NCBI GenBank assembly: GCA_000004985.1
Contig: GG738934.1
DNA from: Naegleria gruberi
Lineage: Eukaryota
DNA: 64,000 nucleotides
Strand: one strand, 5' to 3'
Within the stretch, counting starts at the first letter, position 1. Each line of letters opens with the position of its first letter. Positions 3,001 through 12,000 of this stretch are shown one piece after another. The position numbers were made by a program.

Positions 3001-6000
3001 TCCTTGGCTGAATGAAATGGTCTTTCGCGTATTTTTGCCAATTCTCCCACCAAAGAAAATCTACAGTTGAATTTATTAATGTAAAATATAGAATTTTAAG
3101 AAATATTCAAAATATTGAACTTTACAACTTCACCTTCTTCAACACCCCAAACAAATCGCAATCTCTTCCATCAAACTTTCACAAATAATTATTACAAAAA
3201 AAAAATGTCATTCCAACCACGAACAATTTAATTTCCAAATAATAGGGATATTTCAAGTAAGTTTTGTTTGAGATTATTTGATAATTAACCTTCAAAAGAA
3301 TTGGAATTGACCAAGCTGGTATTGGCAGACAAACTCATGCCGCACTACCACAACTCTAATACTCGCTCAATAAAATACAATTACAAAATGGATATTGAGT
3401 TTAACGACATGATTTTTCGAGTACAGGTAGTAATAAAAGTTGAGTTTTAAATAAAGTTGAAAAAGAGAAAATGAAAGTTGAAATGCAAAATAATAATAAG
3501 TAATTCTGAATGCGTCGACCGGGAATTGAACCCGGGTCACGGCGATGGCAACGTATTCTACCACTAAACCATCGACGCTTCTTATTAAGATATTAAGGCT
3601 TTAAAATTTTACTTATTGAAACCACTAAAATTCTCTTTTCTACTGACTGTCTCAAAAATACTTTGTATTTTACTTTCTCAACAACTAGAGAAGGAGACTT
3701 CAATTTCAATCCAATAGTGACAGACAATGTAATGCCACATATCATATTTTATAACTACATCTTGGGAATTGTTATCTTGCTGTTCCATTTTTACAATTCC
3801 TTACAAAATCTCAGATAATTTAAGGGTCCAAAAATATCCTCCACCGTAAACCCCACATTACAGGAGCGCGATATATGTAACATTTCAGAGACCAAATATC
3901 AAAACTAATAAGAAAAAATGTTATCAAATCATCGATGCATCTCTTCATCAGCTTTACAGCTCTTGATTCTTGTTTGCGCCGCTGGTATTTTCATCCTTAA
4001 TATTTTTGAAGATCAGCGTTATCAATATGAAGTTGGTGTTCAAGGATTTGATGAAGGATTTTTATTTGTTAAGGGTCATGGTGTAAATCAACTGAGAGCC
4101 TTACCTAATTTTCTGGCAAAATTGAATCAACAAATAGGAAAGATGGAGAAGAGATGTTTTATTAACATGAGAGGTGTTGAATGTTCTCCAAATAATGTCA
4201 GATCATTGTTGGCAAGAAATATGACTAGAGGTATGATGGATAATTTGATTGTGGCTGGTGTTGGATATAGTAGGGATGATCACTCAATTAAACCACAAAT
4301 ATTAAAATCAGCTCCTGCAAGTGGTGCTTCTGGTGAATTGACATTTACAAAAACAATGAAAACTGCTTACGAATACTTTTCAATGATTCATCCAAGTGAT
4401 GGTCAATCTGTATTTAATGGATTGTATAGTCATTCTGATATGGGAATTGATTTGATATTTTCAAAGTATTTCGAAGGTGATTTGTTTATTGTAGATGCCC
4501 AAAAACAAATCTTTACACATACTGTTCAATCGCTTGGTCTTCAAGTTACAGATGAATTCCAACAAATTATTGACATTTTGCCTGATCAAATGGATTGGGA
4601 TTTATACATGCAAGTTATCAATTCATTTGGTGATTCAATTGCAACTAGTATCAAGTATGGAGGTGTTGTTGATATGACTGCCTCAGTTAGATCTTGTTAC
4701 AATGATCCACAAATGTTACAATACCTCTCTCAGGAATTACAATTTACAATTGATGGATCATCAGATGTTTCCAAACTTCCAAATGGTTACATTAGATATC
4801 ACAAAGTTTCACAAGTGGACATTGTTGGTGGAAACCCTCAAATATCCAATATTCGTCAAAGAACTGCAACTTTTGCTGCAAATCCAGTCCCTGTCACATT
4901 TGACACAATTCCAATCTGGAGAGCTTTCCCAAATGGAGTTAAACAAGCAAATATGAAGAAAGTTTATGAAAGTTACATGCAAACAAGATCAAGAGATGTT
5001 CAAAACTTGATCAACTCCTTCAATGCCAAGAGAGAAGCAGAAGCCAACAGTCCTCAAACTTTCACAGCTTACAAACTTGATTTACGTACTAATCAATTAC
5101 AAAAGTTTGGAACCCCAATCAGTCTTTCAAGAGGGCTATCAGGAAGTATTACTGATGATACTATTTTTGTTGGAGTCTATATCAATAGCATGTATGAACC
5201 ATCATTTGTTGTTGGATTGCAACCTGTCATTCACAGAAATGCAGACGACACTTTCTATTTTGATTTCAATCGTGGCAACTGTCCAGTAGGTGCTACTACT
5301 TGTAAGATTAATCCTGGAACAAATACTGGACCAGCAAGTCAAATCTCTGCAATCTCAACAACTGGAAAGAACCAATGTATTGGATTAGTATTCAAAAATA
5401 CTGCACAAACAAGATATTCATCACCATATATGTATGTTTGTTCTGGTTGCATGCCAGTTGTTAATGGAAAGGATATTAGCTGTGGTTGCCCTTATGTTCA
5501 ATAAGTAATCCAAACAAATATTGTATTTGTAAACAAATGTTTCCAGTTTCAGTATCTTAATAAAAACTATTTTGACCTTTGGGGTTTCAATACGAGATTG
5601 GTTCCTGTTCACCTGTCAAATTGCTTGCAAACGGCCAAAGGACAACTTTCATCTCAAAAAATTTTCATTTAATTTATCCTAATCTTTAACAACCAGTAAC
5701 TAAGTGGTATCCACAGATGACTGGAGATTTTAAATCAAAGCGTTCTGGATGAATGGTAATGAGTTCGGTAAAGGAGCAAAATATTTGGCTGAACTGGAAC
5801 ATTGATGTTTAGTATATTATCTTGATCAAGTTTTGGGACTCATTCAATAAAAAAACCTCATTTCTTGAACGACTTTCTTGCATGATAACCTCTATATCTC
5901 TTTTGAACCATAGTGGCAGAGTGGTTTTGAAGTAAACCTCTCAATGTTTCTACAATTTCCTTAACTGGTCTTCTCTTGGTATGATCTGTTTCGAGGCAAT

Positions 6001-9000: not shown

Positions 9001-12000
9001 TGAAATTTATAGATAAATAATTGATTAGGAGAAGTTGATTGATTGAACATTTGTGGTTCCTTCAGCAGGGAATCAAACTGTGAAGCAGAAAGACAAGTTA
9101 CTCCCTTTCCGAGCATTGATGATCGTAATGATGCCAACATGTTGTTTAATTATGTACAAAAATATTGTTGTTTGGATGATCCGATATCGATCTCGATAGA
9201 ATCTTCGTTAAAACTGTTTCTTGCTGATAGAGTTTGATGATGAAGAGAGATACTCTTATCGGGTGGTGATGATTTTGGCAGAGAGAAGATCCGTTGATAA
9301 TTTTTTAAAAATATGAAGGAACGAGTTCATTGTGTAATGCATAAGGTGAATGGGTTTTATGAGGAACATTTAAGAACTCCTTTATCCTTATGAAAACAAT
9401 GAAAACTGATAGGGCATGGTAACGTTGTTTGCTTATTGATAATTTGTGTAACGGTAATTTTTTCAAAAAATCAACAAATAAAAAATCATCACACGGCTTG
9501 TCGATACATTTTATCATTTTCTTTTTCTATTCTTCAGGTAGCTTGTTGTGGCATATGATTTATTAAAGGAAGGAAATTTTGGACTCCAATTCTTCTGGTG
9601 TTGATTCTCTGCCCAAGATTGGATTTCTGAAGGGGAATCTACCAAACTTTTCAATTAAGTCATGATGCATACGAGCATACTTGACAAAGTATTGGAAAAA
9701 GCCTTTTAAATCTTCAGGAGCCTCCTCTACCAACAATTCATACTCTTGAATACATTGTTCTTGGTTCATCAAATTCTCAGAATGTTCTAATGGTAACAAG
9801 AGGAAAATCTTCTCAAAAGTCTTGAAGGAATTATACAACTGTCTATCCGAGAGAATTCTCTTACTGATTGCCAAAGCATACATATCAAAGGAGTAACTCT
9901 CTGCCAATCCTCTGTACATATTTCTAGAGAATTGATCAAACAAAATGATCAAACTAATCATTCCCTTCGGAGAGGAGAACCATTCTGATGATTTTGTTAA
10001 CTCTGCAAATACTTCCTCATTGAAAGTTGTTGATGAATTATCTTGAATTGTTGTCAACAACTTCTTGGCCATTTCTCTGCCCGAAATAGCCAAACTTTCA
10101 TATTGCTCTTTAATATCAGAATCAAGTTGTTTCTTCTGTTCGGGATCTTTTCCTGCTGAGAACCACACAGACATTGATTCTTTAATTCCATCAATTCTAA
10201 CACGATGTTCATAGGCAGTAATCTTGCCAAACCAGAAGGAGTAGACTCTTTCAATGTCTTCTGATGGTGATGATGCAATATGTTGAGACATTTTCTTTTG
10301 ATTGTGGTTGTTGCAAGCTTGATAAAGATTCTTTATCTCATCAAACAATAGAAAATCTATGCGTATTAACACCGCATTTAGTCCGTGGTTAAACTTGACC
10401 TAAATGCATGATGATTTGAGAAAGGGCAGAAACTCTTTGTTTCTCCATCGATTCCTGAATAGCAACAGAACTTGAATTCTAAGGGATCATTCCTTAAATT
10501 GAACCCACTTGATTATTTATTCTACTCTCGGTTGTAAGTCACTGGTAATATATAATTCCAATAATATAATTTTGTAATATATTTTACAATAATTCATTGA
10601 AAGTAGATGATTTACCAATCTCCTTCTGAGTGGAATACCAGGAAAAATATCCCACCAATGCCGTATGCATTAATTTCATATTCAAAACCTCCAAGATGAC
10701 ATTCGTACAATTCATGATATCTGAAAGCTTGTAATCTTCCAACCTTTTCACATAATTTCTCTAATTTCTTCATCATTGGCTTATGTTCTTCCGGATAACT
10801 AAGTGCTTCACGATCACTCATTGGTTTACCCTTGTCCATTCCTTTCATCAATGCAATTGTTTCAGTATTCAAAAGTTGTGGAACTTGATGATGGGGATGA
10901 CAATAAACTCGAGTCTCATGTTTTGATTTGTAATCAACTGTTCGATAGTACGGATTCATCCGTTGAATACTCCACAGATAATTAAATAATTCATTGATTC
11001 GTATGGTGTGTAGTCGATGGGCTTGTTGTTGTCGGAATTTTGCAATCAAAAGTGGAGAAGATTGTAAATCGTTGAAAATCAAAACAACACACGATGACAT
11101 TTTTTAAAGATTTGTAACATTTTACAATTTATTATGAAACTAGAATGGGCAATTTCAATATTCACCTCATCATTTTACTTTAATATTGAGAAATTTGTTA
11201 TTCTTTCAAAAATCATCACATGAAATTTACAACAAAATGTCACATTAGACCAACTGAACTATTTATGGCTCTCATTTCATTACACTCTTAGAGTTTTCAC
11301 TGTGTAGCTTCATTATCAACAAACATGAACCTCAAACAAGTTGACTTCCTTTCTGATGCCAGCTATCAAAGTCAATTGCCAAAATTAAATTGTTGCCCAT
11401 AAGAAAAAAATTATCATGACTGACGAATATGCCAACCTCTCAGTGTCCACCACCACCACTTCGGAACCACACGACCTCCACTCTAAAACAACCTCCACAA
11501 GTCCCATGTCACCATCATCTTCACCTCATTCTCCCTCTGTTGTGGTCACTAGACATTCCTTCCAATCCTATCATCAACTTGTAAAATCATTCTTCACAAG
11601 AGGAAGTGATAGGGAACAATTGCTGAATCCATTCGATGTTACTCTCTTTCATAAATCATCTCTGGGTAAATTAATGTTAATTTCCGACTATTCGAATCAT
11701 AGAGTAATGATTTGCAAGGCAGAGGATGGAGCTTTTGTGAGTGAGATTCATGTGAAACATCCACATGGAATTTGTGTGGATGAAGTTAAAGGAGAGTTGT
11801 TGGCCACCGACTGTAACGATCATCTCATCAAGGTTTTCAGAATTGAAACTGGACAATATGTGAGAAATATTGGAAAGGGTTGTGGAACACAAAATGGTCA
11901 ATTTAATGCACCATCTGCAATTTGTTTAGATTTAAAGAATGATTGCATGTTTGTTAGTGATTATGGAAATAATAGGTAAATTTTCATATTTTCCAAATCC

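Follow-up and report, generated by a model that had tools for sequence, protein, structure and literature searches.

A pseudokinase-kinase gene of Naegleria gruberi with relatives in Naegleria fowleri and Willaertia magna: predicted architecture, origin and possible regulation

What kind of signalling protein is encoded when a kinase domain that appears catalytically dead precedes one that appears active in the same chain, and does this order imply control of the JAK type? The question is raised by a locus on the minus strand of contig GG738934.1 of Naegleria gruberi (GenBank assembly GCA_000004985.1), of which one stretch of 64,000 nucleotides, hereafter the window, was analysed. The initial annotation, made from the DNA sequence alone, had described positions 5858-9140 as a single polypeptide with a JAK-like order of pseudokinase and active kinase. 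Taken jointly with a regulatory role for the dead domain and an origin by fusion, we lean on balance towards reading the locus as the gene of a modular signalling kinase, built from a dead kinase, a linker, a NEK-like kinase and an IQ motif.

The gene and its two kinase domains

The locus is a two-exon gene (9140..5858, minus strand) whose spliced product of 1078 amino acids (aa) is identical to the public protein XP_002669002.1 (D2W3V1_NAEGR, NAEGRDRAFT_76075), annotated as 'predicted protein'. All features of the gene lie on the minus strand and every coordinate was verified by translation. Exon 1 (6381..9140, aa 1-920) begins with the ATG at 9140, and its start region (MLxSL...KGV) aligns with that of the N. 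fowleri orthologue. From this ATG an uninterrupted open reading frame (ORF) of 957 codons (9140..6267) spans the dead domain and continues into the live domain, where it reads into an intron of 46 nt (6335..6380, GTAAGT...TAG, phase 0). The intron splits the catalytic loop as HSDI|KPQN, and the motif HSDIKPQN is readable only once it is removed; exon 2 (5858..6334, aa 921-1078, with the stop codon at 5858-5860) completes the kinase domain. The extent given in the initial annotation was therefore exact, and its placement of both domains in one polypeptide agrees with the 957-codon ORF and with the same arrangement annotated or reconstructed in three genera. Its parts list of two kinases and a linker also stands, but had overlooked the intron and a C-terminal IQ motif.

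Judged from profile matches and a structural model, the N-terminal domain (about aa 42-369, 8034..9017) has the bilobal fold of a eukaryotic protein kinase. A Pfam search with the N-terminal 378 aa matched PK_Tyr_Ser-Thr at 28.3 bits (threshold 23.1) over aa 196-359 (8064..8555), which corresponds to profile positions 103-256, the C-lobe half of the profile only, and Pkinase was matched by the N-terminal domains of all seven members of the family described below. The AF2 model built from the alignment of these seven sequences showed kinase topology (pLDDT 71.3, pTM 0.77); a two-sequence alignment had given an unusable model (pLDDT 44), so that seven sequences were needed. The model has an N-lobe at about aa 60-140, with a strand at 81-91, helix alphaC at 99-113, beta4 at 120-128 and beta5 at 133-140, and a helical C-lobe at about aa 190-369. 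Foldseek returned 1510 matches to this model in the PDB at E<=0.001, and all 50 that were listed are protein kinases. The affinity of the domain is of the TKL type, with IRAK4, KSR1/2, BAK1, SOBIR1, BSK8 and TAK1 as relatives.

In the standard sequence definition, a kinase domain counts as a pseudokinase once it has lost the beta3 Lys, the HRD Asp or the DFG Asp, or more than one of them. By this definition the N-terminal domain is a pseudokinase, since both the HRD Asp (replaced by Ser220) and the DFG Asp (replaced by Ser243) are lost in all seven family members. The degenerate catalytic loop, located by alignments to KSR2, IRAK4 and the protein's own C-terminal kinase, reads THNSILPRN (aa 217-225, 8466..8492); HRD has become HNS, which aligns with HKD of KSR2 and with HSD of the own kinase, and the catalytic-loop Lys has become Leu, with the Asn retained. 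Translation places SFG at aa 243-245 (8406..8414), opposite DFG in the alignments to the own C-terminal kinase, IRAK4 and KSR2. Residues H218, S220, I221, P223 and N225 are invariant across the family, as are P242, S243 and F244 (seven of seven), and every one of the seven N-terminal domains carries H[NK]S and SF[GY]. Further along the C-lobe, DVFMLGT falls on the DxWxxG motif of alphaF (KSR2 and own-kinase alignments) and RPTI on the alphaH-alphaI Arg. In the family alignment the pseudokinase is devoid of a Gly-rich loop, neither a beta3 Lys nor an alphaC Glu is conserved, and its alphaC has no conserved acidic residue at all. The VAIK Lys was probably replaced by Gln88 (8877..8879), which in the model lies near the end of strand 81-91, preceding alphaC, and whose column holds Gln in all six family members that include the N-lobe. 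Two family-specific surfaces stand out as the most conserved, namely the pseudo-activation segment (LND[DE]HxTYFSP) and the region of alphaF-alphaG (ILLGEEFDAK); in real kinases this face makes contacts with substrates and partners.

The C-terminal kinase (aa 790-1049, 5948..6773) is interrupted by the intron and matched Pfam Pkinase at 136 bits. It is non-RD and has its landmarks at K818 (6687-6689), HSD (6384-6392) and DFG (6278-6286). The catalytic set is retained (K818, E831, H917/D919, K921, N924, D937-F-G and P957-V-E959, with the Thr of GGT in the activation loop), the catalytic residues are invariant in the family, and from its sequence the domain is probably active. The best solved relative is NEK1 (E 6.8e-22 with the single sequence; 2.5e-27 and 99 bits with the family profile); the runners-up in the profile search of the PDB were Plasmodium PK6 (93 bits), NEK7 (86), Aurora A (85) and PKR (82). 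NIMA-related kinases (NEK1, NEK7) are thus the closest solved relatives of the domain, from which it differs in its C-terminal position, its non-RD loop (HSD or HCD in the family), its degenerate Gly-rich loop and its IQ tail. We describe it as a putative NEK-like kinase of the Ser/Thr type and claim no NEK membership.

For both domains the motifs read in the initial annotation were found where it had put them: HNS for HRD, SFG for DFG and the C-lobe landmarks in the first, the beta3 Lys (K818), HSDIKPQN and DFG in the second. The check that it had proposed, a kinase hidden Markov model (HMM) run over the full protein, yielded two kinase-domain matches, with the N-terminal region kinase-folded, and its term 'catalytically dead' for the N-terminal domain is consistent with the loss of both Asp residues in seven of seven members.

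The two domains are connected by a linker of about 415 aa (aa 370-785, 6786..8033), shorter than the 450 aa first proposed, which is Ser/Thr/Pro-rich and then Lys/Glu/Arg-rich (21% S in aa 373-562; 42% K/E/R in aa 563-722). It is poorly conserved: compared with the N. fowleri orthologue in blocks of 40 aa, the linker is 0-28% identical, the pseudokinase C-lobe 42-62% and the kinase 60-82%, and linker length across the family varies from about 80 to 416 aa. The composition given in the initial annotation (S/T-rich and K/E-rich) holds, but the coiled coil that it assigned to the K/E-rich part is unsupported, because a heptad scan of the linker found no pattern better than in the rest of the protein and because the K/E-rich stretch is mostly deleted in the N. 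fowleri orthologue. From its sequence, a disordered and charged spacer seems the better description of the linker.

About 40 aa upstream of the kinase lies a hydrophobic Phe/Leu/Ser-rich patch, SFSFSWRDLLSIFSFLSRIFGGS (aa 724-746, 6903..6971). All seven family members have such a patch in the corresponding position, 15-60 aa ahead of the live kinase; in Naegleria it is rich in Phe, Leu and Ser (SFSFSWRDLLSIFSFLSRIF), and in the Willaertia proteins KAL9648844.1 and KAL9648587.1 it is a Cys cluster (FMCCCCCFLCCACFG; CLRILLSIFCLPCLCCSLCG). It may anchor the protein in a membrane, be palmitoylated or dock on the N-lobe of the kinase. At the other end of the kinase, an IQ motif (aa 1058-1077, 5864..5923) begins about 9 residues past the domain, and the protein ends 29 residues past it. 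Its core VQKRYRGYHARKSF (aa 1063-1076) fits the consensus [FILV]Qxxx[RK]Gxxx[RK]xx[FILVWY]. Pfam IQ was matched in six of the seven family members (best E 2.3e-6), and the residues Q, K, R, G and R of the motif are invariant in the family.

Distribution and origin of the family

The full architecture is common to seven proteins from the vahlkampfiid heteroloboseans N. gruberi, N. fowleri and Willaertia magna, in all of which the parts follow in the order dead domain, linker, hydrophobic patch, live kinase and IQ motif. Besides XP_002669002.1 (1078 aa), N. gruberi has the paralogues XP_002673323.1 (710 aa) and XP_002682127.1 (715 aa). N. fowleri has XP_044563640.1 (1073 aa), the orthologue of XP_002669002.1, which independent splicing of a N. 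fowleri Logan contig reproduced exactly, and XP_044557592.1 (736 aa), the orthologue of XP_002682127.1. W. magna has KAL9648844.1 (1238 aa) and KAL9648587.1 (1025 aa).

An exhaustive HMMER search with the dead-domain profile against 1.84 billion representatives returned six proteins at E<1e-10; outside the Naegleria/Willaertia family it found only weaker matches to kinase C-lobes, with E-values from 4e-9 upwards. A word-indexed homologue search was less sensitive: the full protein retrieved one relative together with generic kinases, and domain or family-profile queries missed even known members. Family members are annotated as predicted or hypothetical proteins or as generic protein kinases, and the dead domain is unnamed in the source annotations seen. 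The present description therefore improves on the existing annotation.

Pairwise identities gave the same orthologue pairs from the dead and from the live domains, which indicates that the two domains travelled together. In addition, the intron inside HxD[IV]|KPQN is common to the N. gruberi gene, its N. fowleri orthologue and W. magna KAL9648844.1. From the shared architecture, orthologue pairs and intron it follows that the fusion was probably ancestral to the genera, with both halves kept under constraint, so that it would predate the split of Naegleria and Willaertia. A recent internal duplication was considered as an alternative origin and rejected. The dead and live domains of XP_002669002.1 align over the C-lobe only, at 19% identity (hhalign probability 97.4%; BLASTP E 0.04), and their nearest relatives belong to different kinase groups. 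Because the two domains come from different groups, the protein appears to have arisen by fusion.

One family member deserves a separate remark. Around aa 561-575 the paralogue XP_002673323.1 reads HCDVKP|VKLGDF and is about 10 residues (QNI..DG..) short. The gap coincides exactly with the intron position that the gene analysed here has in common with N. fowleri and W. magna, and the splice site in this annotation was probably mis-set.

Possible regulation of the live kinase and known parallels

How might the dead domain serve the live one? The conserved surfaces and the nearest relatives of the dead domain suggest for it the role of a protein-binding module by which the live kinase is regulated or targeted. 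The C-terminal domain would be the sole catalyst; the dead domain would transfer no phosphate, would from its sequence probably bind no ATP, and would have been kept for protein binding. It would dimerise or dock via the LNDxHxTYFSP and ILLGEEFDAK surfaces, either on the C-terminal kinase of the same or of a second molecule, as do KSR with MEK, RAF, IRAK and the GCN2 pseudokinase, or on a substrate or adaptor, and docking would set the activity or the targeting of the live kinase. The IQ tail would bind calmodulin or a calmodulin-like light chain beside the catalytic core and so couple activity to Ca2+, and membrane attachment of the kinase may come from the hydrophobic or Cys-rich patch. The constraint on the dead domain counts in favour of such a kept role (N. 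gruberi and N. fowleri orthologues are 42-62% identical in it and 0-28% in the linker). We tentatively propose, as a possibility short of an expectation, that the family is a further and fully independent invention of pseudokinase control within one chain, after JAK and GCN2, in which a TKL-derived dead domain docks, in cis or as a dimer, on a NEK-like kinase, and the IQ motif and the patch add inputs for Ca2+ and location. If true, it would mean a lineage-specific signalling switch in the pathogen N. fowleri that has no counterpart in its human host.

Several points weigh against the reading of the locus as a modular kinase regulated by its dead domain. Firstly, the linker is long, disordered and about 80-416 aa in length, where JAK and GCN2 have short tethers, so that the two domains could act independently. 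Secondly, the C-terminal kinase has a degenerate Gly-rich loop (SDGASA), and activity of this domain is for that reason predicted and not certain; with the family profile the lead of NEK1 over the next PDB match was only about 6 bits, and the IQ score of XP_002669002.1 lies at the Pfam threshold of 20.3 bits (20.2 for the full protein, 20.7 for its C-terminal fragment). Thirdly, confidence in the N-lobe of the dead domain is moderate (pLDDT about 60-88 for aa 60-140 and <50 for aa 1-59, in a seven-sequence model), and the assignments of Q88 and alphaC come from this model and conservation, not from residue-level superposition. A forced global hhalign of the dead with the live domain gave a different N-lobe register at zero confidence, in conflict with the AF2 topology, and the beta3/alphaC mapping based on it was discarded. 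Lastly, literature searches by locus tags, accessions, Naegleria kinome and pseudokinases retrieved no mention of the gene, its orthologues or the family.

A first alternative is strict cis-autoinhibition of the JAK type, in which the pseudokinase packs on the live domain of its own chain and holds it off until released by a signal, as JAK pseudokinases do when they inhibit the adjacent kinase (PMC13519141). The order of dead and then live domain is that of JAK, the dead domain is under constraint and the two domains co-evolved as a unit, all of which would fit. The tether between the JAK domains JH2 and JH1 is short, however, whereas the Naegleria linker is disordered and variable (about 80-416 aa), which argues against a fixed JAK-like packing. 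Homology to JAK is also lacking. The Pfam search of the full protein at E<=1 recovered kinase-type families and IQ only, so without FERM or SH2 domains the protein was rejected as a JAK member, and the catalytic loop HSDIKPQN is of the Ser/Thr type. Furthermore, the closest relatives of the dead domain (KSR, IRAK and receptor-like kinases) work mostly via dimers and scaffolds. We consider this alternative unlikely. With JAK1-3 and TYK2 the Naegleria protein has only the pseudokinase-to-kinase order in common: the live domain of JAK is a tyrosine kinase next to the pseudokinase, whereas the Naegleria domains are about 415 aa apart, and the Naegleria dead domain, unlike that of JAK, is without Gly-rich loop and beta3 Lys. 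Of the label 'JAK-like' in the initial annotation, therefore, the domain order survives, but not FERM/SH2 domains, a tyrosine kinase or adjacent domains.

A second alternative is that the dead domain acts as a scaffold only, which recruits substrates or positions the enzyme (at the flagellar apparatus or a membrane, for instance) and leaves catalysis allosterically unaffected. This would agree with the long and flexible linker and with the position of the conserved surfaces on the face that kinases usually use to bind substrates and partners, and many pseudokinases nucleate complexes (PMC13519141). The present data fit allosteric regulation equally, and a pure scaffold seems improbable to us. 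Finally, the dead domain could be a functionless, decaying relic, or the gene two genes joined by mis-annotation, as the loss of all catalytic residues and the detection of the C-lobe only by Pfam might suggest, but this is very hard to reconcile with 42-62% identity of the domain between N. gruberi and N. fowleri while the linker drifted to 0-28%, with family-specific motifs that are invariant across three genera and several paralogues, with an uninterrupted ORF of 957 codons covering both halves in DNA of 35% G+C, and with a continuous arrangement repeated in seven genes.

Returning to docking of a dead domain on a live kinase, better parallels than JAK are available. GCN2 (eIF2-alpha kinase 4), which is pan-eukaryotic, resembles the Naegleria protein in having a pseudokinase N-terminal to an active Ser/Thr kinase, with domains of different origin. 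The two differ in that the Naegleria live kinase is nearer to NEK1 than to eIF2-alpha kinases, in the far longer linker and C-terminal IQ motif, in the absence from the Naegleria protein of the RWD, HisRS-like and C-terminal ribosome-binding domains, and in the restriction of its family to Naegleria and Willaertia. Membership of GCN2 was likewise rejected, as Pfam found no RWD, HisRS-like or C-terminal domains in the full protein. The pseudokinase of GCN2 promotes dimerisation (PMC13519141), and PMC12867742 reports that it evolved independently, from an ancestral MAP3K; the derivation of the Naegleria domains from different groups parallels the origin described there.

The closest conceptual precedent is found in Dictyostelium, another protist, where four unrelated, lineage-specific dual-domain kinases combine active and inactive domains and the N-terminal one is inactive in three (Goldberg et al., 2006, PMC1420674). 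Such combinations are treated in that study as recurrent inventions, some of which fuse different kinase groups. The Dictyostelium proteins differ from the Naegleria family in kinase groups and accessory motifs, and no Dictyostelium dual-domain kinase was among the matches to the pseudokinase profile at E<1e-10 in the exhaustive search. We conclude that GCN2 and the Dictyostelium dual-domain kinases are closer analogies than JAK.

Plant tandem kinase-pseudokinases (Yr15/WTK1, Rpg1) also join a kinase and a pseudokinase in a single polypeptide, where a recognition function has been proposed for the pseudokinase (PMC13519141, PMC6170490). They differ in order and origin, serve plant immunity and show no orthology to the Naegleria protein. 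A 2026 review (PMC13519141) summarises what JAK pseudokinases, the GCN2 pseudokinase and plant tandem kinases do in regulation.

The TKL pseudokinases of KSR, IRAK and RLK-Pelle kinases are 12-19% identical to the Naegleria dead domain. KSR, IRAK, receptor-like kinases, RIPK and TAK1 act through kinase-domain dimers. KSR binds ATP and retains the DFG Asp, its DFG lying opposite SFG in the KSR2 alignment, whereas the Naegleria domain has lost the Gly-rich loop, the Lys and both Asp residues. The Naegleria domain is fused to a NEK-like kinase, whereas KSR, IRAK and RLK-Pelle proteins carry CA1-CA4, death or LRR domains.

Fusion of a pseudokinase to a kinase is a recurrent route to regulated kinases (JAK, GCN2, plant tandem kinases and Dictyostelium dual-domain kinases), and we regard the family as a lineage-specific variant of this known design and not as a new kind of system. 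No question of long standing is opened by it, and it would hardly come as a great surprise to a kinome specialist. What it adds is an independent example with an unusual mix of parts, in which a very long linker joins a TKL-like dead domain to a NEK-like live domain with an IQ tail, and two of its genes belong to the brain-eating amoeba N. fowleri. With linkers that range from about 80 to 416 aa, the family also offers a comparative system for regulation by a dead kinase over a long tether.

Genomic surroundings

The window has about 30-36% G+C, except for a gap-affected block at its start and an AT-rich stretch before the terminal gap. Runs of N (assembly gaps) occupy 1184-1954, 44908-44957, 47115-47164 and 61660-64000, and several ORFs that cross gaps are artefacts. 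Two intronless ORFs of the window are identical to N. gruberi XP_002668980.1 and XP_002668982.1. The former (3918-5504, plus strand) encodes a secreted-looking MACPF/perforin-domain protein and neighbours the kinase gene on one side; on the other lies a gene for a DUF924 protein (9563-10372, minus strand). No sign of a functional link between these neighbours and the kinase was seen, and the N. fowleri locus has different neighbours. Two large signalling genes of sensor type elsewhere in the window encode a CHASE4-HAMP-RGS protein (30122-32944, plus strand) and a multi-pass membrane PAS-adenylate/guanylate cyclase (39789-44579, minus strand); the surroundings of the N. fowleri orthologue likewise include a HAMP-RGS gene.

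Two adjacent ORFs on the minus strand (16550-17689 and 17853-19022) resemble each other, for example in HYRMWK/HYRIWK and DLPGFGYSSR/DLPGFGFSSR, and are probably, from this likeness, a tandem duplication; the first has a weak alpha/beta-hydrolase match below the Pfam threshold. ARAGORN called a single transfer RNA (tRNA) in the window, a tRNA-Gly(GCC) of 83 nt (39233-39315, plus strand). A further candidate of 68 nt (3511-3578, minus strand), which ARAGORN did not call, matched the Rfam tRNA family (RF00005) at 49.3 bits and has good acceptor, D and T arms together with an odd anticodon region.

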